A stretch of DNA of 33,401 nt from Candidatus Hodarchaeum mangrovi (GTDB lineage: Archaea > Asgardarchaeota > Heimdallarchaeia > Hodarchaeales > Hodarchaeaceae), in contig JAEOUE010000044.1 of the NCBI GenBank assembly GCA_016839515.1, forward strand, positions 1-33,401. The letters are read 5' to 3'. The notes under the pieces are model-generated. The model was not told where the DNA came from and did not search any database. It worked only from the letters and a program-made list of their open reading frames with translations. A program made the translations under genes and the position numbers. This document shows positions 2,486 to 32,821 of this stretch, piece by piece (positions within the stretch are counted from its first letter, which is position 1; every line of letters starts with the position of its first letter).

Positions 2486-2500
2486 AATAATTACTCCTGT

Positions 2501-3499: not shown

Positions 3500-3565
3500 G
3501 GATATTTATTGAGAATTAATACTAAGATAATTTCTCTATTTAGTTTGATCTTATCTTTTATTCGA

Positions 3566-4387
3566 TTATAACCTTGTTTTAATCCAATTTTGGATTCCAG
3601 TAATTCTTTCATAACTCCTCTGTGAAATAAGTAATGATAATCCAAATGTGATCAGAACATTTGTAACTAAGAAAAATGTGAATTCTTCAATAGGTAGGAT
3701 GCCACCTAAGAGAATATTTATCGTTTGAAATGGTGAGATTTCCCAAATTCCATCTTGAATAGCAATTGCATCGGTAATAGCAAAATAAATTGTACCTAGT
3801 CCTATAGTTAATGAAACTGGAATTTTCATTTCCCACAATATATCTGCTCCAAAGAGAAGTTGAACAGAGATGGGAGGTAAAGCCCATAGTAGTATCAAAT
3901 TTAAATAATTTAAACTCTCAATTTGCGAAAAAAAAGTGACTAAAGAGATTACCCAGATTGAGAGAACTGGAAGAATCACCAATAGATTTTTTAGACCCAT
4001 TTTCATTACTGACTCCTTACTCTTTGAGATTTTTCCAGAAAATTGCCTATATATCAGGATGAATGTCAAACCTATTAAAAAGGTCTGTAAAATAAAAAAC
4101 ATGTACTCTTCAAATGGAACATATCCGATGATTATACCTAAGATTTTATCAGGATCATAACTCCATACTTCAGAAGCAACCAGATAATTATCCCAAGGTG
4201 TAGTATAAATTATAGCAATCAAAGCTAGGAAGAATATTAAAAATCCTATTCTTTGAAAAGTTGGAAAATAACTCTGATTATTTGATTGTTTTAATCGCAC
4301 GATGCCTATGAATAATATAAAGCCAACGATTAGAGGTATAATAACAAATAAAATTAAGAAAAAGGGATAATTCAACATACTTGGCAC
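3566..4387 (-). CDS. crtY: Membrane lycopene cyclase with two tandem CrtYc/Yd-type domains
   Basis: Two repeats of the D..W..P.EE..FF signature (PWDNYLVASEVWSY...VPFEEYMFF and DAIAIQDGIWEI...LPIEEFTFF). Multiple TM helices; lies directly downstream of crtI. Confidence 0.88.
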   Translation of the reverse strand: MPSMLNYPFFLILFVIIPLIVGFILFIGIVRLKQSNNQSYFPTFQRIGFLIFFLALIAIIYTTPWDNYLVASEVWSYDPDKILGIIIGYVPFEEYMFFILQTFLIGLTFILIYRQFSGKISKSKESVMKMGLKNLLVILPVLSIWVISLVTFFSQIESLNYLNLILLWALPPISVQLLFGADILWEMKIPVSLTIGLGTIYFAITDAIAIQDGIWEISPFQTINILLGGILPIEEFTFFLVTNVLITFGLSLLISQRSYERITGIQNWIKTRL

Positions 4388-4407
4388 CTCAGGTAAACGT
4401 AATTCTT

Positions 4408-5940
4408 TTAGGGATTATCATTCTTATTATAATTGTCATAAGCTTTTAATATTAAATCAGTAGTAACTTTAGCACTAGAAACTACTCCTGGTAAACCTGC
4501 TCCTGGATGAGTTCCTGCACCTACAAGATACAATCCTTTAATATCTTCAGATTTGTTATGGGGTCTAAACCATGCTGACTGAGTAAAAACCGGTTCTAAG
4601 GAAAATCCAGTACCTTTATAGCTACTATAATCTTTCTTAAAATCCAAAGGAGTTAGAATTCGATCAGTAACAATATTATCAAGTAATCCTGGCAAGTAAT
4701 TTTTATCTAAGAATTTAAGTATCTTTTCTTTAAATGGGGTAGCAATTCTGGTCCAATCGTCTTTAGAATCCAAATTTGGAACAGGAATAAGAATATAAAA
4801 GGCTTCATGACCTTCAGGAGCTAAACTTGGGTCTGTTCGTGTTGGAACATGTAAATAAGAACTGAAATCCTCACTTAAAACTTTTTTATTAAAGATATCT
4901 TCCAATAGTTCCTTGTACCGTGGACCTAAAATGATTGTATGATGTTTCATATCTGGATATTGCTTTTTTGTCCCAAAATAGATAACAACAAGACTCATAG
5001 AATATTTTGCTTTTGAATATCGTTTATCTTTATTCTTTTTCCTCCATTTTTTATCAATTAATTGAGTATAGGTGAATGCAGGATCAATATTTGAAACTAT
5101 AAGATCTGCAGAAATTGTTTCCCCAGATGTCGTCTTTACACCTCTTACCTCTCTATTTTCAATTAAAATTTCCTTCACTTCGCTATTAACAACTATTTTT
5201 CCCCCTAATTCATGAAATAACCTTGCTAATGCGTGAACCAGTGATGTTGTTCCCCCTTTAGCAAACCAAATACCAAATTCTTTTTCTAAATATTGAATAA
5301 GACTATAAATAGACGGAACGGAAAACGGATTTCCCCCGATTAATAATGGATGGAAGCTAAAAACCATTCTAAGCTTATCATTCTTAATATATTTCGAGAC
5401 AAATTCATAATTAGATCTGTATGATTGCAATCGAATAAGGGCTGGAGCAACTTTTAACATTGACCAGAAGGAAATAAAGGGTTGAAATGATAGCTCTTCA
5501 AAACCTTTCTCATAAATTGGTTTAACAGCCCTAATCATCTTCTTATAGCCCTCAACATCCTCGGGACTAAGAACTTCGATTTGAGGAATATTTTTATCTG
5601 GATGTGAATAATCAAAATATGTCTTATCATTAAAATAAACCCGATAGTAGGGTTCTACTGGAAAGAATTTTACGTAATCATCAATATTTTTTCCAGCTAA
5701 TTCGAAAAGATTCTTAAATATTTGAGGGGCAGTTATTACTGTTGGACCTGCATCAAATACAAATCCATCTTGTTTGAACACCCTTGCTCTTCCACCTATC
5801 TGATCTAGTTTTTCTAGTATTGTTACATTATATCCTTCGTGCTGTAATCGGATTGCAGCTGCTAGCCCACCGAATCCAGAGCCTATAATTACGATTCTTT
5901 TTTTTGTATTCAATTTTTTCATTAAAATTTCCGCCTTCAC
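4408..5940 (-). CDS. crtI: Phytoene desaturase
   Basis: FAD motif IIGSGFGGLAAA, GGRA, FDAGPTVIT, HPLLIGGNPF and the C-terminal signature LYLVGAGTHPGAGLPGV. The start may be the ATG at 5922. Confidence 0.95.
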   Translation of the reverse strand: MKAEILMKKLNTKKRIVIIGSGFGGLAAAIRLQHEGYNVTILEKLDQIGGRARVFKQDGFVFDAGPTVITAPQIFKNLFELAGKNIDDYVKFFPVEPYYRVYFNDKTYFDYSHPDKNIPQIEVLSPEDVEGYKKMIRAVKPIYEKGFEELSFQPFISFWSMLKVAPALIRLQSYRSNYEFVSKYIKNDKLRMVFSFHPLLIGGNPFSVPSIYSLIQYLEKEFGIWFAKGGTTSLVHALARLFHELGGKIVVNSEVKEILIENREVRGVKTTSGETISADLIVSNIDPAFTYTQLIDKKWRKKNKDKRYSKAKYSMSLVVIYFGTKKQYPDMKHHTIILGPRYKELLEDIFNKKVLSEDFSSYLHVPTRTDPSLAPEGHEAFYILIPVPNLDSKDDWTRIATPFKEKILKFLDKNYLPGLLDNIVTDRILTPLDFKKDYSSYKGTGFSLEPVFTQSAWFRPHNKSEDIKGLYLVGAGTHPGAGLPGVVSSAKVTTDLILKAYDNYNKNDNP

Positions 5941-5971
5941 AGTAAATATGTCATTAAAATCATTTATTAAT

Positions 5972-6040
5972 TATGAACGAGAATTTTAAGTTTCAACAAA
6001 ATATTTATATTCATGAACTAAATTATACTACATGAACTTA
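5972..6040. promoter_or_regulatory. Repeated ATGAAC boxes in the divergent crtI/crtB promoter (candidate operator)
   Basis: ATGAAC at 5973, 6013 and 6032; CATGAACT at 6012 and 6031; palindrome TTCATGAA at 6010-6017. Confidence 0.45.
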
Positions 6041-6087
6041 AAAATTTTATCTAGTGTTCTCAAAAGTCAAAAGAGAGTTTACAGAAA

Positions 6088-7029
6088 ATGTATGCTAATG
6101 AAAAGCTGGAAAATATACAGTTACTCCCTGAAAGAATTAATGCTAAGTATAACGTGATTAGTTCATTAGATGAATCCTATAAATTTTGTCTTGATTGGAT
6201 GTCAGTTCATAGCAAATCATTTTTCTTTGCATCAAGGTTTCTCCCAGATGATCAACGTAAAAGTGTTGCTGCTTTGTATGCTTTTTGTCGCTTAACTGAC
6301 GATATTGTAGACGAAGCTTCTGAAGAGACATCAATCGAAGAAATTAATGCAAGCTTAGATCATTTAAAGCAAATAGTGATCAACCTTTCAAATGGATATA
6401 CCTCAACAAATCCAATCCTTCATGCATTTGGAGACACAATTAAAAAACACCGTATTCCTGTCGAATATATGCATGAACTAATTGAAGGCGTCCGAATGGA
6501 TCTAAATAAATCTGAATATTATTCTGAGGATGAACTAGACCTTTATATGTATCGTGTTGCATCTACTGTAGGATTAATGATGACAACAATCTTCATTAGC
6601 AATCCTGAACCCCAAGTTCTTGCTAGAGCTGCTGATTTAGGAAAAGCTATGCAATTGACCAATATTCTACGAGATATAAAAGAAGATTACAATAAAGGGC
6701 GTATTTATTTACCTGAAGAAACACGAAACCTCTATGGGGTTACCAAAGCAGATTTAGAAGACAGAGAGATTTCGAAGAACTTAATTGCACTAATCAAATT
6801 TGAAACAAAAAAAGCACGATCATATTACAATCGTGCGGATTTAGGAATTAAAAAATTACCCCCCAGCGCTGCTTACACTGTCAAAGTTGCATCACGTGTC
6901 TATGGTGAAATATTAAATGAAATTAAACGTCGCAATTATCAGATATTGAAACAAAGAGCCGTCGTTTCAAAGCTTAGAAAAGTTATAATTGCTTTAAAAG
7001 TTCGATTGTCCTTCATTGGAAAATTATGA
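6088..7029 (+). CDS. crtB: Phytoene synthase
   Basis: SKSFFFAS, LYAFCRLTDDIVD, YRVASTVG and QLTNILRDIKED..GRIYLP; divergent from crtI. Confidence 0.95.
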   Translation: MYANEKLENIQLLPERINAKYNVISSLDESYKFCLDWMSVHSKSFFFASRFLPDDQRKSVAALYAFCRLTDDIVDEASEETSIEEINASLDHLKQIVINLSNGYTSTNPILHAFGDTIKKHRIPVEYMHELIEGVRMDLNKSEYYSEDELDLYMYRVASTVGLMMTTIFISNPEPQVLARAADLGKAMQLTNILRDIKEDYNKGRIYLPEETRNLYGVTKADLEDREISKNLIALIKFETKKARSYYNRADLGIKKLPPSAAYTVKVASRVYGEILNEIKRRNYQILKQRAVVSKLRKVIIALKVRLSFIGKL

Positions 7030-7220
7030 TCATCTTCCCTGATTCTTTGTATAGAATAAAGATGAATTAAGTTATATAGAAAAAAAATGATAAAAAATTG
7101 CTTTTACACACAATAAAAAAATTATTTATGACGTAATAAGGGATTTAAACTGACAGAAAGTAAAGTAGTAGCTTTTACAGGAATAGATTAGCAATAATTT
7201 TTTGAACAGAGAAGATTTTT

Positions 7221-8366
7221 ATGCTTAAACTTGACGAAAAAATTATTCTGTCTTTAAGAAAGAATCGAAAAATTATTGTACATTATGATGAGTTAAAAAA
7301 TGAGTTCAAGGTAGACAATTCTAAAATCAAAGGAATTATTTCCCGATTAATGGAAAAAGGCTTCATTACTGAAGAGGAAACCGAATCATCACACCCAGTT
7401 TTTAAAGTAGTCAGTTCCCAAGACTTTATTTTAAATTATTTAAGGAAGAATCGTAATCGTGAAATTCCAGTCTCGGAAATAGTTAAAAATAGCTTTCTTA
7501 AACGGAATACTATTTCTAATGCAATTCATGAACTTCAATTAAAAAATCTTATTGAAATTTGTCGACGACCCCTTAAGAGAGGTAGATATACCGTTATTTG
7601 GTTAACGGGAGACATAATTACCGAAAAGTATCGTCATAAAGATGAATTAGTAGAAGAAGAATTTATTGAGGAGAAATTTCAGAAAAGATTATCTAAAGAA
7701 CCAGTAATTATAGATAGGAATCTAAATGAAGATATTTCTTATTTAAGTTCAAATTCATATGATCATGTTGAATTTTTTAAGAATTTATTACCATTAACAC
7801 ATGATATTTTCACTTTTGTAACTGGTTACCTTAGTCCTTTAATGACCCAAGTTGGTAATCTCTGGGAAAGTGCTGAATTGTCAACTGTAGACGAACATAT
7901 TATTTCTGCTAGGATGGAGAAAATAATGATTGAATTAATTAATCAACGGAATAACATCAAAGGGGAAGTAATCATTTTAGTCTCAGTTGAAGGAGAATTT
8001 CATACATTAAGTTTACTCGCTTTAGAATTACTATTTACAGATTACTCATACTATGTGATTAATCTTGCTAAACCCCTCCCTATTAAGGCTTTAATTCGTT
8101 ACCTTCAGGAAAAAGGAACTCCAAAATGGATTTTTCTTTCTATTACCCAATCTATATATCGGGGTACATTGAAGCGTGACATTATTTTACTTCGAAAAGA
8201 GTTTGGAGACACTGTTGGAATAGTGATTGGAGGAAAGGGTCTATTAGAAGAGGATCGAAATAAATTTCCAGGAGCAAATAATGTAATTATTACCCCTGAA
8301 GATCTTTTTCAATTTTTCACTAGTTCTTTCAAAAGAAGGAAAAATGACAATGATTCCTGCTATTGA
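7221..8366 (+). CDS. Cobalamin-binding transcriptional regulator (CarH/LitR-like sensor domain with N-terminal tandem wHTH)
   Basis: W-x9-EH motif (WESAELSTVDEH), EGEFHTLS (ExHxxG variant), LSIT and IVIGGKG. Two N-terminal wHTH-like units, both containing LRKNR. Adjacent to crtB. Confidence 0.8.
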   Translation: MLKLDEKIILSLRKNRKIIVHYDELKNEFKVDNSKIKGIISRLMEKGFITEEETESSHPVFKVVSSQDFILNYLRKNRNREIPVSEIVKNSFLKRNTISNAIHELQLKNLIEICRRPLKRGRYTVIWLTGDIITEKYRHKDELVEEEFIEEKFQKRLSKEPVIIDRNLNEDISYLSSNSYDHVEFFKNLLPLTHDIFTFVTGYLSPLMTQVGNLWESAELSTVDEHIISARMEKIMIELINQRNNIKGEVIILVSVEGEFHTLSLLALELLFTDYSYYVINLAKPLPIKALIRYLQEKGTPKWIFLSITQSIYRGTLKRDIILLRKEFGDTVGIVIGGKGLLEEDRNKFPGANNVIITPEDLFQFFTSSFKRRKNDNDSCY

Positions 8367-15409: not shown

Positions 15410-17695
15410 CTACAAGGATAATTTTTCTTTGCTGGAAGAAATAAATACTTTTTTAATTCGGTTAGCCAGTTTCTTGCCAATACTCGGTACCGAGGCAAGT
15501 TCGTCTAAGGTGGCATTAGCAATTTCTAACAGTGATCCAAATTTTTCTAATAGCCTGTGAGCTTTATTGATATTTATACCAGGAATTGCTGCTAAAATGA
15601 GCAATTGAATATCTTCTATTGTTTGTTCTTTCCTTGTTACAGATGGTAATTGATAATCTGAGGATCTTTCTTCTTGTTCACGTCTGGCTAGCTGGAAAAG
15701 AAATATTGCTGATTCTCTTAAATTACGAGTAAAAATAACAGATAATTGATAATCTAAAAGAATAGACCCTAATGCACCCATAAGACTATTAATATGAATT
15801 TGTCTTGGTATTTCTTCGAATTCCTGCTCTATAAGAAGAATAGCGATTTTTTGTTGAGCTAACCTTACTAATTGTGATTCTTGACCTGAAGAAGAGGGTT
15901 TAAATAATCTGCCATCTATAATTGAATCAATAAAATCTGAATAAGTTTTATATTCAACTAAAACACGATCAGATAATAAATAATCTCCTGCTTCTAAATC
16001 CTTTGATTCTAAAATAGCTCCCATCTTTTTCAATAGCTTAGGAAGGCGATGAGAGGTCTCTCGTGTATCAATGATTATTCTTGGATAAAATTCTTGTTTA
16101 ATCTGTTTTGAAGATTTTTCTGAAGGTTCTTCATCTTGTTTAAAAAATTGATCTAACCTTTTTTGAGGTTCTAATTTTACTTGTTTATTAAGTAATTTGG
16201 GTAATTCCTCTTTCAAAAACCGTTTCATTTTAGATTGCTTTCGTTTTATAGCCCAATACATAGCTTCGTCTCGTGTTCCCTTTGTAACTAAGTGTATAAC
16301 TCGAGATCTTCTTTTTCGACCTCTTCCTTTTCGTTGGATGGATCTTACTACTGAAGGGACTGAATCATAAAAAACGACTAAGTCACAGTTGCCAACATCT
16401 AATCCTTCTTCCCCTACAGAGGTACTTAATAGAATTTGAACATTTCCATTCTTAAATTGTTCAACAACATTTACTTGCTCTTTTTGAGAGAGTCCTTTAT
16501 CCTCTTTGGTACTTGAATGTCCCACAAAGATAGCAGAGTCATAACCTGCATTTTTTAGCTCACTAAAAAGAAATCGGACAGTATCTCTATAATTACTGAA
16601 GATAATAATTCGTGAATCATTTTTCTTATTTTCAACTAGGACATCTTTTAGTTCCGCTATTAAATGATTTAATTTAGGATGAAGAAGTGGATTTTCAATA
16701 AGTCGATCCTCAATAGCTATTAATCGTTCATCTTCTAAAAATAATCTTAATGCCTTCGAGGATGTTTTTTTTCTCCATTTATCTATACTATTTAGAGCCT
16801 GAGGAAATCCTTGACTTTCAACTAATTCTTTGAGATGTTGAACTCGAATCAAATTTGCGCTGACAACTAAAAGTTCTCCAAATACAGAATCCTTTTTTGT
16901 TAGCCCTACTACTTGTTGATGAATGGCTAGTGCTTCCCGTTTTCCGATATATTTTGTATTAATTGATATAGGAACCTTATTTTTCAGAAGAGAGATTAAA
17001 TTGTCTTCAAAAGATTGTAAATCTTTTAAAATTTCATTGTAAATTAAAGGTAATTCAATCCATATAACTTTAGGGGTGTGTGTAGAGATATATTTACCAA
17101 CATCATAATCGTTCTCATCAGTGACAGATATCTTTGAGATTCGTAAATTTTCACAGACTTCTAGAATCTTATCGGGATTATTTCCAGGAGTAGCAGTAAA
17201 ACCGACAATTTGACATTTTGCTTGAGCAGCAATCCCTACATAGGCATAATCACCAGTTGCACGATGAGCCTCATCAATACATAAGAGACTAATGTTTTGA
17301 ATATCCAATCGATTATATGTTAGATCATTTTCTATAGTTTGAGGAGTACTAACAATAATTTTTATCCCTTGATACATTTCAGTTCTTTTTTCAGGAGAAA
17401 CTTCTCCAGATAATTCTAAGACTAAATCAGGAGTCAGATTCCCAATATATTCAAGAAACATTTCCTTAATTTGATGAACAAGAGGGCGAGTGGGAGTAAG
17501 AATGAGTATCTGTTTAGATCGTTCTTTCTGTAATTTATACGCTGTAAGATAAGCCATGATCACAGTTTTGCCTAGTCCTGTGGGTAAAACCACTAGTGTG
17601 TTTCCAGAATTAGCTACACACTCGGAAAAGATCATCTGTTGATAAACCCGAGGTTCAGCCTTTTCAGATACTAGATTTGTCATAAATTTTACCAC
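15410..17695 (-). CDS. hef: Hef (FANCM/Mph1-like SF2 helicase + ERCC4 nuclease + HhH)
   Basis: LPTGLGKT, DEAH, TATPG, TSVGEEGLD, the ERCC4 domain (IIIDTRE...GDY...VEYK..SD) and tandem HhH (IPGINI...VPSIGKKLA). Confidence 0.93.
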   Translation of the reverse strand: MVKFMTNLVSEKAEPRVYQQMIFSECVANSGNTLVVLPTGLGKTVIMAYLTAYKLQKERSKQILILTPTRPLVHQIKEMFLEYIGNLTPDLVLELSGEVSPEKRTEMYQGIKIIVSTPQTIENDLTYNRLDIQNISLLCIDEAHRATGDYAYVGIAAQAKCQIVGFTATPGNNPDKILEVCENLRISKISVTDENDYDVGKYISTHTPKVIWIELPLIYNEILKDLQSFEDNLISLLKNKVPISINTKYIGKREALAIHQQVVGLTKKDSVFGELLVVSANLIRVQHLKELVESQGFPQALNSIDKWRKKTSSKALRLFLEDERLIAIEDRLIENPLLHPKLNHLIAELKDVLVENKKNDSRIIIFSNYRDTVRFLFSELKNAGYDSAIFVGHSSTKEDKGLSQKEQVNVVEQFKNGNVQILLSTSVGEEGLDVGNCDLVVFYDSVPSVVRSIQRKGRGRKRRSRVIHLVTKGTRDEAMYWAIKRKQSKMKRFLKEELPKLLNKQVKLEPQKRLDQFFKQDEEPSEKSSKQIKQEFYPRIIIDTRETSHRLPKLLKKMGAILESKDLEAGDYLLSDRVLVEYKTYSDFIDSIIDGRLFKPSSSGQESQLVRLAQQKIAILLIEQEFEEIPRQIHINSLMGALGSILLDYQLSVIFTRNLRESAIFLFQLARREQEERSSDYQLPSVTRKEQTIEDIQLLILAAIPGININKAHRLLEKFGSLLEIANATLDELASVPSIGKKLANRIKKVFISSSKEKLSL

Positions 17696-22895: not shown

Positions 22896-23378
22896 TTACT
22901 TTTGCTTTCTTCCTAGTAATTTTGAGACAAATCTGCTCCATAACGACTTTTTAGGTACTATTCCCGAAATATCACCCATACTAGGATTGGATACTACATT
23001 TAACTCTATTAGATCTTTTTCAAAATCTTGGTATTGACCCTCTATAATAATGTCTCCTATTTTATCACTAAATTTTTCAAGAAATCGCTCCATTGCTCTA
23101 TTCAACTGTTCTTTAATAATTTCAGTACCAAAATTTACAGGATTTGCAAAAACTAATATAATTTCCTTTTCTTTGTCGATTTTAAAATCCAGTTTAATTT
23201 CGTTAAAAATAACACATTGTATTTCATCGCCAAAAGACTCCTGTGAATAAGAATATATAGCTGCTAAAAATCCTGTTTGGAGAGAATGATCGGGGTGGAG
23301 TTGACAATAATTACCACCAAAACATTTTCCGAATAAAGGAATTCCACTAGTTTTAAATATGAAAACGTCATCTACCAT
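22896..23378 (-). CDS. Longin-like domain protein
   Basis: VFIFKTSGIPLF, then a helix SLQTGFLAAIYSYSQE, beta strands, and ERFLEKF..QDFEKDL, the pattern of Asgard longin-fold proteins. GGTGA RBS upstream. Confidence 0.7.
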   Translation of the reverse strand: MVDDVFIFKTSGIPLFGKCFGGNYCQLHPDHSLQTGFLAAIYSYSQESFGDEIQCVIFNEIKLDFKIDKEKEIILVFANPVNFGTEIIKEQLNRAMERFLEKFSDKIGDIIIEGQYQDFEKDLIELNVVSNPSMGDISGIVPKKSLWSRFVSKLLGRKQK

Positions 23379-23893: not shown

Positions 23894-24418
23894 TTGTCTA
23901 AAATGTACTCTTGTCCAAATTGTGGAGCTTCTATTACTTCAAATGACTTATTTTGCCAGACTTGTGGTCTAGATTTAACTAAAACCCAACCACCTCAGTT
24001 TACAAAATCATCTGATCGAACTAATGAATATAGAGGATATATCCAGATTTTAGGGTATGTTGAAATGGTTTTTGGTGTTCTATCATTAATAATTGGGGTT
24101 TTTGCTGCAATTATTGCAGTTTTTATCCCTATCTTAATGCTTCAAGGTATCGCAGCAGATGATTTAGGATCTTCAACAGAAATAATTGCTGTTTTTGTTG
24201 GAGTTATTGTCTTTATTGTTGCTTTATTGTTTTTAATTTTCGGGATAGCACAAATTGTCTATGGAAGACGTTTACTTCAGCACAAAAGTTCTGGCCGTAC
24301 TGGTACAATGGTTATTGGCGCATTACATTTATTTGATATACCCTTTGGAACCGCTTTTGGCGCTGCAGCATTGTATATTCTAAGTCGACCAGAAGCTATT
24401 GATTTATTTGAAGGTTAG
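23894..24418 (+). CDS. Zinc-ribbon-containing membrane protein
   Basis: CPNCG...FCQTCG followed by several TM helices and a PFGT motif. Confidence 0.8.
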   Translation: MSKMYSCPNCGASITSNDLFCQTCGLDLTKTQPPQFTKSSDRTNEYRGYIQILGYVEMVFGVLSLIIGVFAAIIAVFIPILMLQGIAADDLGSSTEIIAVFVGVIVFIVALLFLIFGIAQIVYGRRLLQHKSSGRTGTMVIGALHLFDIPFGTAFGAAALYILSRPEAIDLFEG

Positions 24419-24434
24419 CAAAATTTCATCAGTA

Positions 24435-25340
24435 TTATAAAAAGAAGCAACCTTCAGCTGTTTTTTTTACTGTTCCTCCAACAATTATTTCGGCAAAATC
24501 GCTATTTTGGAATTGACATTCTGCAATTAATTTACTAGGACGATTTAGTTCATATCCTTGTTCCAGAATAATTTTTGATCCTTTTATTTGATCAGAAAGA
24601 ACTTTATTTGCCTCAAGATATGCTGCAATTGGACCCGCTGCACTTCCTGTTGCTGGATCCTCAAAAACACCAGCAGAAGGGGCAAACATACGTACATGAG
24701 CGTGAGAATCATTATGAATAGTCTCTGGGGAAAGAACAACTAAATCTTGGGCTGGAAAATCCTTCAGGGTATCTAATAATAATTCAGTATTTAATCTAAT
24801 CTTCTGAATTATAGCTAATGAGGTGATTGGAACTATTAGATAGGGAAATCCAGTTGAAATGAATTGCATTGGCCATTTATCAGAAATTGCTGTGGGGGAT
24901 ACTCCTAGAACTTTAGCTATAATTTCTTTATCCTTGAAAACTTCTATGAATTGGGGGACTGGTTGATACATTTGAACTTGATCTTTTTCACAAAATTTTA
25001 CCTCAATTGGACCAATTCCCAATTCTAAAAAAGCATGGTTTTCATTAGGTTGTATGACGCCTTGATTTCTCAATACAAATGCTGTTCCAAGAGTTGGATG
25101 CCCAGCAAATGGTATTTCAAGCCCTGGAGTAAAGATTCTTACTTTACGAACACATTTTTTGGTCGTAGAACTATAAACAAAGGTTGTCTCAGAGAAATTC
25201 ATTTCTCGTGTGATTCCCTGCATTTCTTCTTGGGTTAAATCAGTATTAGAAAGCTTCCAAAAGGTTGCAAGTTGATTTCCAGAGAATAAATAGCGTTTAT
25301 CAGTGAAAACACTTGTTTGTATAAAATTTAATGAACGAAT
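24435..25340 (-). CDS. PhzF-family isomerase/epimerase (start extended to a probable ATT at 25340)
   Basis: NFSETTF, EIPFAGHPTLG and EDPATGSAAG. The family N-terminal motif VFTD..FSGNQLA is encoded in frame upstream of the tracked ATG at 25223. Confidence 0.88.
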   Translation of the reverse strand: MRSLNFIQTSVFTDKRYLFSGNQLATFWKLSNTDLTQEEMQGITREMNFSETTFVYSSTTKKCVRKVRIFTPGLEIPFAGHPTLGTAFVLRNQGVIQPNENHAFLELGIGPIEVKFCEKDQVQMYQPVPQFIEVFKDKEIIAKVLGVSPTAISDKWPMQFISTGFPYLIVPITSLAIIQKIRLNTELLLDTLKDFPAQDLVVLSPETIHNDSHAHVRMFAPSAGVFEDPATGSAAGPIAAYLEANKVLSDQIKGSKIILEQGYELNRPSKLIAECQFQNSDFAEIIVGGTVKKTAEGCFFL

Positions 25341-25890
25341 AACAAGACCTCCTGCATTATCATTAAGATTTTAATTGCTGATTTAATTTTCTTTATTATC
25401 TTAATAGTTCTGGGGCGAGTTTTTCTTGTGATTAGATATAGTAGTTTATAATTCAATACTTCAATTATAGGAAATCCTTCACCCAATAATTAAGCATTAA
25501 ACTTCTTAGTTTTAATTACTGCAGTAATGGTTATATTTTTATCGTTTTTTACTATTCTTGTTCCATATAAAAAAACTATCTTTTGATTAATCTTTTTTCT
25601 CGTTAACTTGAGAGATATAACGGTTATGTATTATCCTGACCATGATAATACTCACATTCTTTCATTATTTAATTAGATCATGAATTAATTGAGAATCTGA
25701 GTTAATTTGCATTAGAAAAAATGACTTCATTCCTGGCTATTATAAATAAATGTAATATCCCTCTATCCCCTAGATATAATTTACAAGCTTTAAATTTCTT
25801 TTAGTTTAATATCCATCGTTAAGTGTAGAAACTGCGCCCTCTCGTACATTTAATCATTGGAATCAGACATTGGAATATTCTCTTTTTAAT

Positions 25891-25910
25891 GTAGTCTTTT
25901 TTTAGACTAC
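25891..25910. terminator. Hairpin downstream of peptide gene 1
   Basis: GTAGTCT-T6-AGACTAC, a perfect 7-bp stem about 65 bp past the peptide stop. Confidence 0.3.
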
Positions 25911-25973
25911 TTTTATATAGCAATTGATTCGTCCATTCTTTTATTAAAATGTAAGAGAATTGGAGTTTTTTCG

Positions 25974-26126
25974 TTAATCTATTGCTGGAGGGGCTACAGC
26001 GGGGTTTGCACTAGCCAATGATGAAGATAGGAATAACATTATTAGTAGAAATATGATTGGAAGCAATTTCCAGAATGTTAATTCCACATCGAATGATTTA
26101 TTTCTTATTCTTAAAGTTTTTTCCAT
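25974..26126 (-). CDS. Unannotated 50-aa signal-peptide/Pro-tail peptide 1 MEKTLRIRNKSFDVELTFWKLLPIIFLLIMLFLSSSLASANPAVAPPAID
   Basis: Translated by hand. GGTGA lies 5 nt before the ATG. Basic n-region, hydrophobic h-region, A-S-A site. Divergent from the 26300 regulator and homologous to peptide 2. Confidence 0.8.
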   Translation of the reverse strand: MEKTLRIRNKSFDVELTFWKLLPIIFLLIMLFLSSSLASANPAVAPPAID

Positions 26127-26190
26127 TTCTTTCACCTTATTTCTGTTTTTTTTAGTTTTGGTGTTTAGAGTCGCCGTTCCTATTCATCTC

Positions 26191-26223
26191 AAATTTTGCG
26201 GATTGGTTCTCTAGACAAAATTT
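26191..26223. promoter_or_regulatory. Inverted repeat AAATTTTG-N17-CAAAATTT (candidate operator, module 1)
   Basis: Perfect 8-bp arms at 26191-26198 and 26216-26223 between the divergent peptide and regulator genes. Confidence 0.45.
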
Positions 26224-26299
26224 ACGTATTTAACAGCTAACTTTAAATGTTATGGTGGTAGATATCAAGCTACAGCACACTGTCAGACTGTGATTTAAG

Positions 26300-27754
26300 G
26301 TGGAAGGCTCACAAACGAAACAGTTTATAGATCAAATCCGACAAAAAGGAATTGACGCTGAGGCAGATGACTTTGTCATAGATCTGATCTATATATGGGA
26401 AAAAATCCACAATGATGCTCCAAATATCACTCTGGCAGAAATTAAGGACTATTCTGAAAGTATCCTTTCAAATGTTACTCTTCCTTTCTATGAAAAATAC
26501 AAACATGATCCAACAATCAAAAAGTATGATTTATGGTTGAAAGATTATTATTCAATTGTTGTTGAATGGACAGGGCAGGGAGCTATAATGTTCCCCTCTA
26601 GACTGATCAATTATGAAGTTTTCAATCATAGAGACCAAATGTTTGAATATTTTATAAACAAACTTAAAACAGGTGAGTTTAGACTTAAGAAGGAAGATCT
26701 CTTTTCTTTTCTCTTTCCACGACTAATCCATGTTACAGTTCCTTTATCAGAGACTGACATTCTGATATTAAAATCACTTCAATATCTACAAAATACTCAC
26801 AGCCCTGATCCTTTAAAAATCCCTAAAGTTGAGGATTATGCGAGACATTTGGATGTATCTACCCGTACAATAATTCGTAGATTCAATATTATCAGATTTT
26901 TCCAAGTTTACATCAATATTGGTTTATTAAATATGAGTAAGCTAGGTTACGAGACTTTTTTACTATCTCATTTTGATCCAATACCTCCTGATCTTGCCAA
27001 GTATGTAGTTTTATCTGCAGATCTGGATATAAGTAATTTTACAATAGTTCAGATGCCAATAAAAAATACAAAACTATTTCTCGAAGCACAAGAGAGTTTT
27101 CAACCAAAAATTTTCCATCAGATGTCTGATCGTATACATTCGTGGTCATTATCTTTACTGGGAGCAGATGGTAAAGGTTGGACTTCCCCCCCAGCATTTA
27201 TTCATTCGGATCCTCGTGTCAATATTATAAATCCTTCTCCAGATTTTCATTTTGACCTCAAACCAGGACTAGATGTATTTCGACTTTTAACTCCTGCTGA
27301 CTTTAAAATTCTCGATTTTCTTATCACAAGAGGGGCAATCTCAAGCCTTAAAGATCTAAGTCGAACAGTAAATGTTTCTCCTTCTGAGATTACAAAGCGG
27401 ATTCAAGAATACGAAGCTCATAATATTCTTTTTAAAACATATCAATTCTATAACCTAGGATTAGATTTACACATCCTCTTCTTTATAAGCTCCCCAAATG
27501 ATCTAGGAATTCCGTGGCTCAACCATTTCTTGACATTTCCAAAATGCGACGTTTTTTATAGCGAAGAAAATGATTCTTCATTCTATTTTGGATTTCTGAA
27601 ATTACCACCTCAATGGATCAAAGAACTTACGCGTAAAATACACCAGATTAAGAAAGAGTTTAAGGATATTAAATTTTATTATACACTAGAACCTCCACTT
27701 GAGCTAAAATGGAATCTTTCTCTTCCAGAGACTTATCCGAAGGAAAATATGTAG
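26300..27754 (+). CDS. Large regulator with tandem Lrp/AsnC-like wHTH modules (paralog 1)
   Basis: LSETDILILKSL...YARHLDVSTRTIIRRF...NMSKLGY and LTPADFKILDFL...LSRTVNVSPSEITKRI...YNLGL. Confidence 0.75.
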   Translation: MEGSQTKQFIDQIRQKGIDAEADDFVIDLIYIWEKIHNDAPNITLAEIKDYSESILSNVTLPFYEKYKHDPTIKKYDLWLKDYYSIVVEWTGQGAIMFPSRLINYEVFNHRDQMFEYFINKLKTGEFRLKKEDLFSFLFPRLIHVTVPLSETDILILKSLQYLQNTHSPDPLKIPKVEDYARHLDVSTRTIIRRFNIIRFFQVYINIGLLNMSKLGYETFLLSHFDPIPPDLAKYVVLSADLDISNFTIVQMPIKNTKLFLEAQESFQPKIFHQMSDRIHSWSLSLLGADGKGWTSPPAFIHSDPRVNIINPSPDFHFDLKPGLDVFRLLTPADFKILDFLITRGAISSLKDLSRTVNVSPSEITKRIQEYEAHNILFKTYQFYNLGLDLHILFFISSPNDLGIPWLNHFLTFPKCDVFYSEENDSSFYFGFLKLPPQWIKELTRKIHQIKKEFKDIKFYYTLEPPLELKWNLSLPETYPKENM

Positions 27755-27849
27755 AGTTAATAATGATCTTAATTTTAATGGTCTTTGGAGGAGACTTATT
27801 ATATTAATGTAAGTGATTCCAATAAAATCTGTATTAATCATTAATAGAA

Positions 27850-28359
27850 GTGAGTATAGTGGTTTCTAAATTAGAAAATGTGAAAGGACAATTGCATTAT
27901 GCCCTTAATATGGCAATGAAGCCCCTTGATAAAGCAATCGAGTTAATTCCCAAGGATAAATTAGACTATAAACCGTTTGAAGAAGCAATGACCGCAGCAG
28001 AATTGGGATATCATATTTATGCAGTCAGCTTTGTTTACACAACGGGAACGATTAAAAGGGAATTTTCAAACGAGGATTATGCTATTATCCCTTTTGATTT
28101 CTCCAAAGTCAAAACAGCAAGGGAATTTCTAGAATATGGCGCAAAAGTTCGAGAATTTATTCAGAAAGCATTGGATGAAACCCTTACTGAAGCAGATATG
28201 GATAAAGAAGTAACCTACACATGCTGGGGAGGAGTAAAGATCAAAGGATTTGAATCATTAAGTAATATCTTGGAAGAAGTGATTCACCATCGTGCGCAAT
28301 TATGTCTTTATTTACGAATGCTTGGTATTAAACCTCCTTTTATTTATGATTTTTCTTAG
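27850..28359 (+). CDS. DinB family protein
   Basis: LDYKP...MTAAELGYHI and IHHRAQLCLYLRMLGIKPP. Confidence 0.88.
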   Translation: MSIVVSKLENVKGQLHYALNMAMKPLDKAIELIPKDKLDYKPFEEAMTAAELGYHIYAVSFVYTTGTIKREFSNEDYAIIPFDFSKVKTAREFLEYGAKVREFIQKALDETLTEADMDKEVTYTCWGGVKIKGFESLSNILEEVIHHRAQLCLYLRMLGIKPPFIYDFS

Positions 28360-28685
28360 ATATGATCTTTCTCATGACTTTATTATTGGATTGATTTAAT
28401 TTAACCAGTAAAAATATCTATAAATCAACCAAACAACCCGAAAATGATAAGAATTGAACCTCTTAATATTTTAAATCTGGGAATATTTATTTATTTTTAC
28501 TCTGTATGGATTCTAAATCGAATAAACTGAACTTAGAATCAAACCAAATTGGATCAGTCTTAAATTAACCGATTCCAACTAGTTAAACATAGATCAAGAA
28601 TAGAATCTTTATCAATTGTGAATATTTAATTCAGGCACGTTTTAATATTTCCTTTGTATCATGTTCATTGATTTTAATCAATAGG

Positions 28686-28832
28686 ATGAGTGAATTTATG
28701 GTTTGTCCAAATTATGATGATAAGAATTCAATGTGTACTGCTTTGGGACAGAAATTCTATACAGGAATGCAAAAGCCTTGTTTGGATCTAGATGACCCAG
28801 AAAAATGCCCAATTCTCACAATGAGAGGATGA
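28686..28832 (+). CDS. Unannotated 48-aa four-cysteine protein MSEFMVCPNYDDKNSMCTALGQKFYTGMQKPCLDLDDPEKCPILTMRG
   Basis: Translated by hand. CP-x9-C-x14-C-x8-CP pattern in a 630-bp gap; alternative start at 28698. Confidence 0.7.
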   Translation: MSEFMVCPNYDDKNSMCTALGQKFYTGMQKPCLDLDDPEKCPILTMRG

Positions 28833-28989
28833 AAATCTGTTTTAGGTTATAATGAAGTTTTTATCTGTAATTTAACTCAACTTTCACAAAATTCCCCTAA
28901 TTTGTAAGAAAGATATATCACTTTCTTTTTTTAAACTAATAACTCCTTGTCTTTGCTGATTACTAAATTTCACCTAAAAATTGTCAAAT

Positions 28990-30453
28990 CTAATTAAATA
29001 AGGTACCCAAGATACTTATAGCTCTTTTGATGTGATTCTGCTCATCAGCCACTCCCAAATGGATATTAAATCCCAAATTACCTAATTCATTCCATTTTCG
29101 AGTAAAGATCCTAAACCAAGTCTGGGGGATGGTGAGAGTTCCAAGTAATAAACGGGGAGAATAATAGAGACTGACAAAGGGAAATTGACTTAAATGATCA
29201 CAAATATGTTGTGTTATTTTAGTTTCACCCCAATCTGAAATTAGAATCATCCATATAGTTAGATCCAAGCCAATATTTGAAACAATGCTAATTGGGAGAG
29301 TTATTTCTTTCTTTAAGATTTCTCGCCATAACCGAGTTATACTATCTTGATTCACACCAGCATATTCAGCTAATTGGATTTCCTTGGTTGTACCATGAAT
29401 TTGATAAAAATTAAGCAATCTAGCTTGGGAGACGGTGAGTTTCACTGGATCTAAATTTGGAGTTAATTCCATTTTCAGACCTGAATGATCAAGAATAATC
29501 TCATCATCCCAATTATTTTCCCGTAATATTGGGGGTGGTATTTTCCAGCGCTTTTCAGGTCTTTTATGGATAGGGGATAAATGCCAGCCAATATATTTTG
29601 AATATAACTGAAATTCACGTAATGGATTTAAATCTTCTTGAATTTTGGAGAAAATGAAGTGTTTCCAATAGGGGATTTGATAAATTTGTAACATTCCTTT
29701 CTGTAATCCTAAATTGAAAGGTAGTTTCCCTAAACAATATTCATCATAGCTCGAAATTGTCTCTTCATGATCAAATAAATATGCTATAGTTTGATACCCT
29801 AATTGTGCCATTTTAACTAAATAAGTGTGTGTAAGTATATATTGATCATATAATCGACCACAACGTGTAGAAATGGTTTTGGGTTCACAATCAATCGCTT
29901 TAGCAAGTTCTTTTTGACTTGGAAATCGTTTCCAATGGTGACAGAATGCTGAATCAGTATAATAGAGTATAATTTTTCTATCAGTGTTATTTAGAGGTAA
30001 GTTTGAATCATCAAATACTTTCCAAAGTGTTGATAGAAAGTCTTGTATACTCTCTTTCTTCTTTAGATCTGTTATCTTCCAATCCATATCATAGATAAGT
30101 TTTGAGGCTAATTTATGCGGAAATAACATAATACTACCCTCAAATAACAAACCAAATGAATAATAGTCCTTAGCATACTTTATTCGCCATATAAAATAAT
30201 GTTTAAATTCTGGGATTTTTATCCATTTATTCATAAAGGGTAGGGTATGGCTCTTAAATAGAAGTTTACTTACTTCTCGGGCATTATGAGTTGACGTAAA
30301 ACAGTATTTTTGTAATTTGCTAATAAAATCTAGAAATTCTTGGATGAAAGTGCTTTCTAATTCACTCTTAATATCTTCAGAAAGTTGGGTTTGTTTTGGA
30401 GCCAAGATCTTACTACTCAATCCTTTATTTTTAGATTGGATTATAAAAATCAT
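28990..30453 (-). CDS. Large regulator with tandem Lrp/AsnC-like wHTH modules (paralog 2)
   Basis: LNNTDRKII...SQKELAKAIDCEPKTISTRC...MAQLGY and LTVSQARLL...LAEYAGVNQDSITRL...SNIGL. Shares G.I..FP..L and W.L...W..PP motifs with paralog 1. Confidence 0.75.
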   Translation of the reverse strand: MIFIIQSKNKGLSSKILAPKQTQLSEDIKSELESTFIQEFLDFISKLQKYCFTSTHNAREVSKLLFKSHTLPFMNKWIKIPEFKHYFIWRIKYAKDYYSFGLLFEGSIMLFPHKLASKLIYDMDWKITDLKKKESIQDFLSTLWKVFDDSNLPLNNTDRKIILYYTDSAFCHHWKRFPSQKELAKAIDCEPKTISTRCGRLYDQYILTHTYLVKMAQLGYQTIAYLFDHEETISSYDEYCLGKLPFNLGLQKGMLQIYQIPYWKHFIFSKIQEDLNPLREFQLYSKYIGWHLSPIHKRPEKRWKIPPPILRENNWDDEIILDHSGLKMELTPNLDPVKLTVSQARLLNFYQIHGTTKEIQLAEYAGVNQDSITRLWREILKKEITLPISIVSNIGLDLTIWMILISDWGETKITQHICDHLSQFPFVSLYYSPRLLLGTLTIPQTWFRIFTRKWNELGNLGFNIHLGVADEQNHIKRAISILGTLFN

Positions 30454-30496
30454 TTCTAATTTAAATTCTTACTTAAGAGTCGATTAGATAAAAACG

Positions 30497-30534
30497 AGAC
30501 TTTGTCATCCTTACTTACATCAAAGTCTTGATGT
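30497..30534. promoter_or_regulatory. Inverted repeat AGACTTTG-N16-CAAAGTCT overlapped by palindrome ACATCAA-N4-TTGATGT (candidate operator, module 2)
   Basis: Arms at 30497-30504 and 30521-30528; second dyad at 30517-30523 and 30528-30534. Confidence 0.55.
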
Positions 30535-30579
30535 GGATTATATTAGGTGGCATCCGGCTTTCATTAATTGTGATAAATT

Positions 30580-30735
30580 ATGAAAGCTCTCAAGCCACGT
30601 TTAGTTTTAAACCAATCTAATTTAATTCGACTTATACCTATTAGTTTTTATATGGCATTACTACTTTTAGGAATTATATTGGGAATAACTGACCCAAATC
30701 CTCCCCCACTTCCTCCACCATGGACTGGTGGTTAA
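30580..30735 (+). CDS. Unannotated 51-aa hydrophobic-helix/Pro-tail peptide 2 MKALKPRLVLNQSNLIRLIPISFYMALLLLGIILGITDPNPPPLPPPWTGG
   Basis: Translated by hand. GTGAT upstream; divergent from the 30453 regulator; aligns without gaps to peptide 1. Confidence 0.8.
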   Translation: MKALKPRLVLNQSNLIRLIPISFYMALLLLGIILGITDPNPPPLPPPWTGG

Positions 30736-30783
30736 ATCAAATACAGGGTCGAGTGAGGGGATCCACAGATTAAGGAGAAATAG

Positions 30784-31098
30784 ATGATTTTGCAGGAGAA
30801 AAATGGAGTTGGGTTTTTGAAAAAGACCCAAACTCCTATTATATTTTCTATGCTTACTTTATCCTTATTTAATAATTTTAATATGAAATCAAATCACCTA
30901 ATCCTTGAAACAAGGGATACAACGGAGAAACAATACTTAAAATATTGGTTACGATTATTAAAAATAATTTCAGGTTTAGATTATTATTTGAAGCCGATAA
31001 AGGGAAATAAATCATACGAATTATTTTGTTCAAGCGACTCCAATTACTTTCAGCAATTATGGGAAAAAATAATCACAGTACCATTAAGGATGGATTGA
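30784..31098 (+). CDS. Hypothetical protein (104 aa)
   Basis: AAGGAG RBS upstream. Its stop TGA overlaps an in-frame TTG of the next gene. Confidence 0.55.
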   Translation: MILQEKNGVGFLKKTQTPIIFSMLTLSLFNNFNMKSNHLILETRDTTEKQYLKYWLRLLKIISGLDYYLKPIKGNKSYELFCSSDSNYFQQLWEKIITVPLRMD

Positions 31099-31916
31099 AA
31101 GTTCTAAATTTGAAATTAATAGATTCAACTGAAATTTACAGACCTTTCACACCAATTCTAGTTGTAGATTATAATAAAATAGTTTTTTTTTCGCAGACTC
31201 TTGCTAAGCTCTGTAGATTCCATCCTTCGACTGTCATTCCTACTTCTTTATCTGCAATTTTGAAAATGTTACCATATTTTCGAATAATAAATATTAACCC
31301 ATTAAAAATATTCCTTGGACAACAAAACAAACCTCCATTTATGGAGATTCCGGCTTGGGGAACGGAAATTATACATGAACTACGTACTTCGGTTTTACAC
31401 CTTGATTTAGGAATAAATGCAGTACTTAAAGATACTGAAGCAACTCGAAAGATAGTTCAAGCCAATAGAAGAATAAAAATTTCAACTCTATTGGCTTCAG
31501 ATTTCATACAACTACACTCTACACCTCCAGAGATCGAATTGATTTCCTTGGATAAAGTAATCCAAGATATCCTTACAATTGTTGATAATGGAAATGTGAA
31601 ATACTCAATAATCCGACAAAACACTCCAGATATTTGGGCAAATCAGACTTTTTTAAGTTCATTCTTTATAAATATCATCACATGGTTAAATACGTATTCT
31701 TTAATCATTGAATTTGAATTACTCAATCTAGTTTCTATAAAAATTCGAATAATCACACCTGATGATTATATGATAGCTTTACTCCCTGGATACAGAATGG
31801 TTACTTATTATATTGATTATATCGCATCGTATTTTAACGCACGAGCGTGGTTTGATCAAAATTCTCTCAATATAATTTTTCCCTCATTATCTCATTTATA
31901 TAAGAAATTAACATAA
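31095..31916 (+). CDS. Degenerate PAS-HisKA histidine-kinase-like protein
   Basis: PAS-like PILVVDYNKIVFFSQTLAKL, H-box IIHELRTS and an eroded N-box (DIWANQTFLSSFFINII); no G1/G2 boxes. The TTG at 31095 is preferred over 31026 because it gives a TTGA overlap. Confidence 0.6.
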   Translation: MKVLNLKLIDSTEIYRPFTPILVVDYNKIVFFSQTLAKLCRFHPSTVIPTSLSAILKMLPYFRIININPLKIFLGQQNKPPFMEIPAWGTEIIHELRTSVLHLDLGINAVLKDTEATRKIVQANRRIKISTLLASDFIQLHSTPPEIELISLDKVIQDILTIVDNGNVKYSIIRQNTPDIWANQTFLSSFFINIITWLNTYSLIIEFELLNLVSIKIRIITPDDYMIALLPGYRMVTYYIDYIASYFNARAWFDQNSLNIIFPSLSHLYKKLT

Positions 31917-32164: not shown

Positions 32165-32821
32165 TTGAAGCTTATAATTGGGAAGGTTATTGGTCTTCCT
32201 TTCCTATTTGTTTTTATGAATCTTGGTTTTTTTCTATTTTCACCTGAAATTTTTACACAGCTATCTATTTTACTACCAATTTTACTCCTGTTTGTATTTA
32301 TTAGTATTGATATTCTCATTCGTCCCATATCCGCTGAGAAGGATGCTTTTCAAAGATTAATTTTAATAATCTCTTTTTTGATATTTCCAATCTTCCTCTA
32401 TTTACCATATGTCGAATTTTCCTATTGGGAGAATTCACTCTTTATGAGTAATATCTATTGCTATTTGCTTATTCTAGGAAATTTTCTTTTATTTTCGGGA
32501 GGAACGATTCTGTTTTGCAGTCGATTACAGCTTGGGAAGTTTGGTGGTCCAAAACTTGTCATTGAAACCGATCATATATTAATCCAAACAGGATTTTATC
32601 GATTTATTCGTCATCCCATGTATCTAGGTTTTCTTTGTCTTTTCTTAGGGTACAATATAGCAGTAGGAGGGCTTTTTGTAGCCTTTCTTGGTACTTGTTT
32701 TTTCTTTTTACTCTTTAGATATAGAATGATCATTGAGGAGAATCAATTATTAGAAGAATTTGGGAACGAATATTCTGTTTATAAGAACAGAACCAAACGG
32801 TTAATTCCGTTTTTTTATTAA
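32165..32821 (+). CDS. Isoprenylcysteine carboxyl methyltransferase (ICMT/Ste14/PEMT) family membrane protein
   Basis: HILIQTGFYRFIRHPMYLG, RMIIEENQLLEEFGNEY..Y and RLIPF. Confidence 0.9.
   Translation: MKLIIGKVIGLPFLFVFMNLGFFLFSPEIFTQLSILLPILLLFVFISIDILIRPISAEKDAFQRLILIISFLIFPIFLYLPYVEFSYWENSLFMSNIYCYLLILGNFLLFSGGTILFCSRLQLGKFGGPKLVIETDHILIQTGFYRFIRHPMYLGFLCLFLGYNIAVGGLFVAFLGTCFFFLLFRYRMIIEENQLLEEFGNEYSVYKNRTKRLIPFFY

Follow-up and report, generated by a model that had tools for sequence, protein, structure and literature searches.

Small exported or membrane peptides that are paired with a regulator are known from bacteria. The closest described examples are the RRNPP(A) systems of Firmicutes and phages (Rap-Phr, PlcR-PapR, NprR-NprX, Rgg-SHP, and AimR-AimP), in which a DNA-binding receptor adjoins a gene of about 40-60 codons. 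One account (PMC12700828) describes RRNPP-type receptors paired with adjacent propeptides, which are exported by Sec or PptAB. Here we report a pair of genes with a comparable layout in the archaeon Candidatus Hodarchaeum mangrovi. The whole stretch of DNA analysed (33,401 nt of contig JAEOUE010000044.1, G+C about 32%) is called the window, and the pair consists of a micro-protein gene of 50 codons plus stop at 25974..26126 on the minus strand and a divergent gene, c0, which encodes a protein of 484 aa at 26300..27754 on the plus strand. The pair resembles the RRNPP systems in its small gene, whose product joins a Sec-type leader to a short C-terminal peptide, in the many diverged paralogous pairs per genome, and in the divergent orientation, which is also seen in Rgg-SHP. 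It differs from them in its archaeal host and in a leader that is more conserved than the presumed pheromone.

The Lrp/AsnC regulators offer a further comparison, since they classically share a control region with a target gene that is transcribed divergently. However, c0 carries an extra N-terminal domain of 145 residues, is restricted to one genus, and would have a 50-residue membrane peptide as its target. Bacterial small membrane proteins such as MgrB and SafA, which modulate PhoQ, have about 30-65 residues and one membrane span and are encoded beside, or controlled by, the signalling system on which they feed back. They have no sequence relation to the present peptide, whose partner is a predicted soluble transcription factor, joined in sister cassettes by a soluble protein with an H-box. 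Our literature searches, judged without full texts, found no description of this cassette or of any archaeal ribosomal-peptide signal. What is new is the class of the receptor, the occurrence in Archaea, and the way in which conservation is distributed.

A conserved micro-protein gene

The open reading frame (ORF) starts with an ATG at 26126 and ends with a TAA stop at 25974-25976. The initial annotation of this DNA had given exactly this position without a strand, which is the minus strand. A Shine-Dalgarno-like GGTGA (26132..26136, minus strand) precedes the ATG with a spacer of 5 nt. An in-frame GTG at 26135, which sits within the GGTGA, would extend the product to 53 aa. The alignment of the homologues begins at the ATG, which supports the choice of the 50-aa start, and a public protein collection contained the 50-aa form as an unnamed predicted protein, while the 53-aa form was not found there. 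Residues 1-20 form a basic N-region with five K/R against three D/E, residues 21-33 a hydrophobic core of 13 residues, residues 34-40 a small and polar stretch with A-S-A at its end, and residues 41-50 a Pro-rich tail with three Pro and a final Asp. All of the elements listed in the initial annotation, namely the GGTGA, the basic N-terminus, the h-region, the A-S-A motif, and the 10-residue tail, were thus found in the sequence.

The initial annotation had also proposed a search of related genomes, and this search found homologues in 20 of the 21 other genomes of the genus, where the significant matches fell in open frames of about 38-91 aa and the peptide was kept as an ORF of 48-56 aa. A profile built from 27 homologues (profile A1) detected 1-6 copies per genome in the same number of genomes. 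In the 378 genomes of the phylum that lie outside the genus, the profile gave weak matches alone (E > 3e-4), and 15 of these 23 matches fell inside ORFs of 241-998 aa. When the profile was compared with 1.84 billion representative proteins, 19 relatives were obtained, 17 of them of 48-55 aa. All 19 were short (48-81 aa), so the possibility that the homologues continue as long ORFs and that the gene is a truncated remnant of a longer one, which the initial annotation had raised against its own reading, is refuted. The dN/dS values of 15 close orthologue pairs were 0.07-0.34, with substitutions mainly at third codon positions, and 18 of 26 homologues had a Shine-Dalgarno-like tetramer 3-12 nt upstream of the ATG. 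The sequence itself, the short conserved homologues, and the purifying selection indicate that this ORF is a genuine conserved gene. Records derived from NCBI already hold such ORFs; gene callers output these micro-proteins as unnamed or hypothetical proteins, and the family is therefore readily overlooked.

The family was aligned from 50 divergent ORFs representing 49 distinct sequences; the alignment filter had removed three true members, whose tails contain no Pro, as well as a doubtful and a spurious ORF. In all aligned members, the N-region was basic and contained a hydrophobic-R-x-R motif, and K or R immediately preceded the hydrophobic block. Among the 27 homologues, R6, R8, and P23 were invariant and K20 nearly so. 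The hydrophobic block occupied 20 columns without gaps in 49/49 sequences, with 13 hydrophobic columns followed by seven columns of mostly S/A/T/G. It started with hydrophobic-hydrophobic-Pro (Pro in 42/49) and ended with G-x-A. Counted from the end of the block, position -3 was G in 35 members, A in six, S in three, T in three, and another residue in two, position -2 was variable, and position -1 was A in 36, G in eight, S in one, T in two, and V in two. Position +1 was Asp in 18 members, Pro in seven, and another residue in 24, including the Asn of the window peptide, and position +2 was Pro in 28/49.

Two subfamilies were distinguished. In subfamily A, to which the peptide of this finding belongs, the tail starts near G-P and ends with hydrophobic-Asp. 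In subfamily B the junction is D-P or P-P and the Pro-rich tail is longer, with runs of 4-7 Pro immediately before the stop in many members. Two subfamily-A peptides from other genomes have a C-terminal Cys. The pN/pS ratios of six orthologues were 0.11 in the N-region, 0.13 in the hydrophobic part, and 0.77 in the tail, and the tail sequences also differed between paralogues within one genome. Judged from these values, the tail is almost free to change except at its conserved ends.

The partner c0 and the shared control region

A c0 gene (about 480 aa) was divergent from the peptide gene in 28 of the 29 peptide loci, and the exception was a truncated copy of 36 codons. The reverse relation was evaluated on 67 usable c0 genes, in which the N-terminus and the upstream DNA were present, out of 78 distinct c0 ORFs in the loci examined. 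A divergent small ORF of the peptide type was found at 53 of them, with its start mostly 128-165 nt from the c0 start. One further c0 gene had the peptide gene downstream on the same strand, and two cases were doubtful. The adjacency of a small gene to the receptor gene that marks the RRNPP systems is therefore a regular feature on both sides of the pair. In the genome of the window itself, all three c0 genes have a peptide gene, and two of these cassettes lie in the window.

The range of c0 coincides with that of the peptide, and both families are restricted to the genus. c0 was detected in 21/21 other genomes of the genus, with 1-12 matches each, and elsewhere among 400 genomes of the phylum there was one weak match (E 2e-17), in the sister family, and otherwise domain-level matches. 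The source labels of c0 relatives were mostly Candidatus Hodarchaeales or Hodarchaeota. Viral contigs were also scanned for c0, and no relative was found in them. Tandem arrays of three to five c0 genes were observed at L061 (G020:C234:7000-14008) and L063 (G001:C14:72000-76600).

The distances between peptides and those between the neighbouring c0 proteins were correlated, with Spearman coefficients of 0.39-0.73 over 990 and 325 pairs. Since the peptide and the adjacent c0 diverge together, the cassettes duplicate as units. When parts of the peptide were compared with single c0 domains, all of the distance correlations were positive (0.33-0.73) and no domain was distinct; the data therefore demonstrate co-inheritance and do not tell the mechanisms apart. 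A prediction of the complex of c0 and the peptide, based on alignments A2 and A1, scored 0.00, which gives no verdict and is evidence neither way. Taken together, the comparisons of sequence and gene order indicate that the peptide and c0 form an obligate two-gene cassette, a lineage-specific invention of one genus that has been duplicated as a unit.

In Pfam, c0 gave weak matches to HTH_24 and to an HTH_AsnC-type domain (E 6.8e-6, just below the cut-off). The AlphaFold2 (AF2) model, with a pLDDT of 88.5, showed a helical N-terminal domain (residues 1-145) followed by two modules, each composed of a winged helix and an alpha/beta domain. The winged helix-turn-helix plus alpha/beta (RAM) effector domain of Lrp/AsnC proteins is thus present twice in tandem in the model. 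In Foldseek, the fused tandem Lrp-like protein NirDL (4czc) ranked first, with E 5.9e-8, ahead of Lrp/AsnC regulators, and the matches included LrpC, AsnC, and Pyrococcus feast/famine regulatory proteins (FFRPs). The doubled fold is the likeness to NirDL/AhbAB; NirDL is an enzyme, however, and nothing suggests that c0 is one. The N-terminal domain (window positions 26300-26740), modelled alone with a pLDDT of 89.3, had no PDB match by Foldseek (best E 2.4), and it may represent a new fold or a sensor domain. Because the model and Foldseek indicate two tandem modules and an unmatched N-terminal domain, the best description of c0 is that of two ligand-responsive DNA-binding modules of the Lrp/AsnC type joined in one chain, in effect a single-chain "dimer", to which a domain specific to the family is added. 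The TPR-type domain of RRNPP receptors was absent from the Pfam matches of c0, from the model, and from the Foldseek results.

The two genes are separated by a divergent control region of 173 bp (26127..26299), and an alignment of 26 such regions revealed three elements in common. A near-palindrome centred on CTAG lies at about 26206-26218, just on the peptide side of a TATA-like box at about 26241-26248, and in 21 of the 26 regions CTAG stood 60-115 nt ahead of the peptide ATG. Archaeal repressors usually act at palindromes between the TATA box and the start site, and the near-palindrome is the candidate operator of the cassette. A conserved block containing CGAC, at about 26169-26177 in the window, lies about 31 nt before the ATG; its pattern was matched in 16/26 regions, and the window carries a variant outside the pattern. 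The promoter and operator roles of these elements are putative.

Sister cassettes and downstream genes

The second cassette of the window consists of a c0 paralogue of 487 aa (28990..30453, minus strand), which is 25% identical to the first, and of a divergent micro-protein gene of 51 aa (30580..30735, plus strand) that belongs to subfamily B. Its product shares the build of the first peptide; the junction reads G-x-T-D-P, and the Pro-rich tail has 14 residues. The exact sequence of this product is recorded as a predicted protein. Directly downstream lies a gene for a protein of about 100 aa of family k1/k5 (30784..31098, plus strand), which is followed by one for a protein of about 295 aa of family k0 (31026..31916, plus strand, start codon uncertain). 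The k0 family has invariant H-E-L-R-T columns, which correspond to an H-box of the histidine-kinase type, and its similarity to the phospho-acceptor helix of CpxA is weak (E 0.011). No membrane span was noticed in the k0 protein of the window. Pfam gave no match for k0, for k1/k5, or for the genes downstream of subfamily-A peptides, and the protein atlas yielded sub-threshold leads alone for the k5 protein.

This order of genes is general in subfamily B. In all 19 loci, k1/k5 directly followed the peptide gene on the same strand, so that the peptide gene heads an operon; k0 was also present in 13 of these operons, and a longin/roadblock-like family, k4, was interleaved in seven. A k4 relative of 160 aa is found elsewhere in the window (22896-23378, minus strand), with a weak match to Fuz_longin_1 (E 0.0048). 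Distant k1/k5 relatives followed nine of 28 subfamily-A peptides and were not found after the peptide of this finding. A separate observation in subfamily-A operons was an ORF of about 150 aa, at L027 1187-1645 (minus strand) and with a counterpart in L029, which resembled a CheY-type receiver by eye.

The DNA beyond the stop codon of the first peptide gene (25224-25973) is poor in ORFs and contains several AT-rich inverted repeats, and it is followed by a PhzF-like gene at 24435-25223. No decayed k1/k5 gene was found in 25224-25973, and a search of 25100-26400 against Rfam gave no match. A search for RNA sequencing runs that cover 24400-31000 yielded none. Since this cassette has no operon genes, c0 and the peptide make up the minimal conserved unit.

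Possible roles of the peptide and their meaning

The initial annotation described the peptide as a signal peptide with a cargo of only 10 residues, and the layout of a signal peptide was borne out. Like a Sec class I signal peptide, it has a positively charged n-region, a 13-residue core within the usual h-region length of about 7-15, and a polar 7-residue c-region with small residues at -3 and -1, both of which are Ala. The substrate-binding proteins of the same genome are built in a similar way, with an h-region of 10-13 residues between a basic n-region and an A-x-A-type end, and the peptide is typical of these Sec signal peptides. It departs from the class in its 10-residue cargo, its conserved n-region of 20 residues, the invariant length of the h- and c-regions, and the Pro at +1 in part of the family. 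At 20 residues, the uncharged block could also span a membrane, and as a single span close to the C-terminus (residues 21-40 of 50) it resembles a tail anchor. A peptide of 50 aa leaves the ribosome before its hydrophobic segment emerges, and insertion or export would therefore be post-translational.

Other kinds of signal were tried and rejected. A lipoprotein signal was ruled out by the lack of Cys at +1 (0/49), a class III (pilin) signal by the lack of a domain after the hydrophobic block, and a Tat signal by the conserved motif, which is R-x-R and not R-R. A mirror image of a PEP-CTERM or PGF-CTERM sorting signal was likewise rejected, since the parts stand in the opposite order and the signal has no cargo in front of it. 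A subunit of a translocon or transporter was also rejected, as the neighbourhood holds no such genes.

The pairing of the peptide with c0, a regulator of the ligand-binding type, and their joint multiplication are compatible with signalling. Our preferred reading, which we hold tentatively and with somewhat less than even confidence, is that the peptide is a membrane-inserted adaptor or co-sensor coupled to the regulator, with the conserved cytoplasmic N-region and the span as its working parts. The constraint on the N-region and the membrane block, the cytosolic proteins of signalling type in the subfamily-B operons, the receiver-like ORF in two subfamily-A operons, and the conserved motifs of the control region speak for it. 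In this scheme, c0 would bind the CTAG-centred near-palindrome in the 130-170-bp shared control region and would control transcription of the peptide gene together with that of any operon that follows it. The peptide would be inserted after translation so that the N-region is cytoplasmic, the 20-residue block spans the membrane, and the Pro/Gly-rich tail is outside. The N-region and the membrane segment would then couple the membrane to c0, to the downstream cytosolic signalling proteins of the sister cassettes, or to both. The variable tail would be exposed and specific to each paralogue, and it may additionally be clipped at the G-x-A site.

Several observations weigh against the adaptor or co-sensor. 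The junction resembles a good signal-peptidase site, with A/G/S at -1 in 45/49 members and a small residue or Thr at -3 in 47/49, and together with the similar signal peptides of the genome this implies that the protein may not stay whole. The tail of subfamily A keeps its G-P start and its hydrophobic-Asp end, which suggests that the tail itself matters. No peptide gene was found at 11 of the 67 usable c0 genes, mostly inner members of tandem c0 arrays, which would therefore be "orphan" regulators. Finally, no operon lies downstream in the present cassette, as the 750 bp beyond the stop contain no ORF of more than 52 aa, and here the adaptor would therefore have to act with c0 alone or in trans.

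The strongest rival, which we consider unlikely but serious, is the pheromone precursor proposed in the initial annotation. In an extension of that proposal, the peptide would be exported and cut by signal peptidase I after G-x-A (A-S-A in the window peptide), the free Pro/Gly-rich peptide of 10-17 residues would accumulate outside, be re-imported by an oligopeptide ABC importer, and be bound by c0, and the peptide-bound c0 would alter transcription of the cassette, as an RRNPP-type analogue on an Lrp-type receptor. The layout, the G-x-A junction, which is built like those of the true signal peptides of the genome, and the uniformly short homologues all agree with this proposal, and the genome encodes one archaeal signal peptidase I and has 13 matches to the oligopeptide-binding family PF00496. 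The tight pairing, the joint duplication, and the presence of up to six peptide and 12 c0 matches per genome are also in its favour, and the tail is the variable part that differs between paralogues, like the specificity regions of pheromones. Moreover, the effector domains of Lrp/AsnC proteins bind small ligands. However, we know of no precedent for peptides as their ligands, and c0 has no peptide-binding domain of the TPR type. The leader is the most constrained part of the peptide, far beyond the needs of export alone, and the subfamily-B gene heads an operon of cytosolic proteins. In addition, Pro at +1, which blocks type I signal peptidases, occurs in 7/49 family members, while the window peptide has Asn there. 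A still wider claim, that the cassette serves peptide-based communication between cells, with each c0 the receptor for the peptide released by its neighbour and with several private channels per genome, is slightly less likely again.

We regard as improbable that the peptide is a membrane-active small toxin or stress peptide that is repressed by c0 as part of a selfish or defence-like module. Such a module would explain a small hydrophobic peptide with a single span, the candidate operator that overlaps the promoter region of the peptide gene, and the restriction to one lineage with tandem arrays and copy numbers of 1 to 12 among close genomes. A three-domain regulator of 480 aa is unlike known antitoxins, however; the cassettes lie in ordinary chromosomal neighbourhoods, no viral contig carried c0, and the subfamily-B peptide shares its operon with proteins of signalling type.

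A regulatory leader ORF, whose Pro-rich C-terminus would stall ribosomes and tune the downstream genes in the manner of an arrest peptide, is more improbable still. The position as the first small ORF of the operon in 19/19 subfamily-B loci and the runs of Pro before the stop would suit it. The peptide of this finding, in contrast, has just one P-P pair, only 10 residues after the block, and no gene within 750 bp downstream, and selection acts mainly on the N-region and the membrane block. A membrane segment 10-17 residues from the stop is also unable to reach the translocon while the tail is in the tunnel, unlike in SecM, MifM, and VemP. A chance or decaying ORF without function can practically be dismissed, since the lack of a Pfam match and of a usable relative in the protein atlas is contradicted by the comparative data, that is, the presence across the genus, the low dN/dS, the fixed length, the Shine-Dalgarno-like motif, and the conserved partner.

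The remaining genes of the window include a carotenoid-type cluster (1487-8366), with a Rieske oxygenase, a metallo-beta-lactamase-fold protein, a lycopene-cyclase-like protein, a phytoene-desaturase-like amine oxidase, and a phytoene synthase. A regulator with a winged helix and a B12-binding domain (7221-8366) stands beside these genes and would suit light-dependent control. An oligopeptide transporter in the window was considered and rejected, as the genes at 1487-5940 belong to this carotenoid and oxygenase cluster. The gene at 15410-17695 (minus strand) encodes a 761-aa Hef-like protein in which a DEAD/Helicase_C helicase is joined to an ERCC4 nuclease and to HhH motifs. Downstream of the second peptide gene, at a distance of about 1.4 kb, stands an ICMT/PEMT-family membrane methyltransferase (32165-32821), with no evidence of a link to the subfamily-A peptides that have a C-terminal Cys.

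Little is known of the means by which Asgard archaea perceive their environment or one another. Whether it serves as a membrane co-sensor or as the source of a secreted pheromone, the cassette would be a lineage-specific signalling invention. It is also a well-defined and testable object, composed of an exported or membrane peptide of 50 residues, its own regulator of about 480 residues with an N-terminal domain unmatched in the PDB, and a conserved candidate operator. Synthetic peptides, recombinant c0, and DNA-binding assays offer ways to study it, and no genetic system for the organism is needed. The pheromone would be the more remarkable outcome: if true, Archaea would have their first pheromone system based on a ribosomal peptide, with an Lrp-type instead of a TPR receptor, in an order held to be closest to the eukaryotes.

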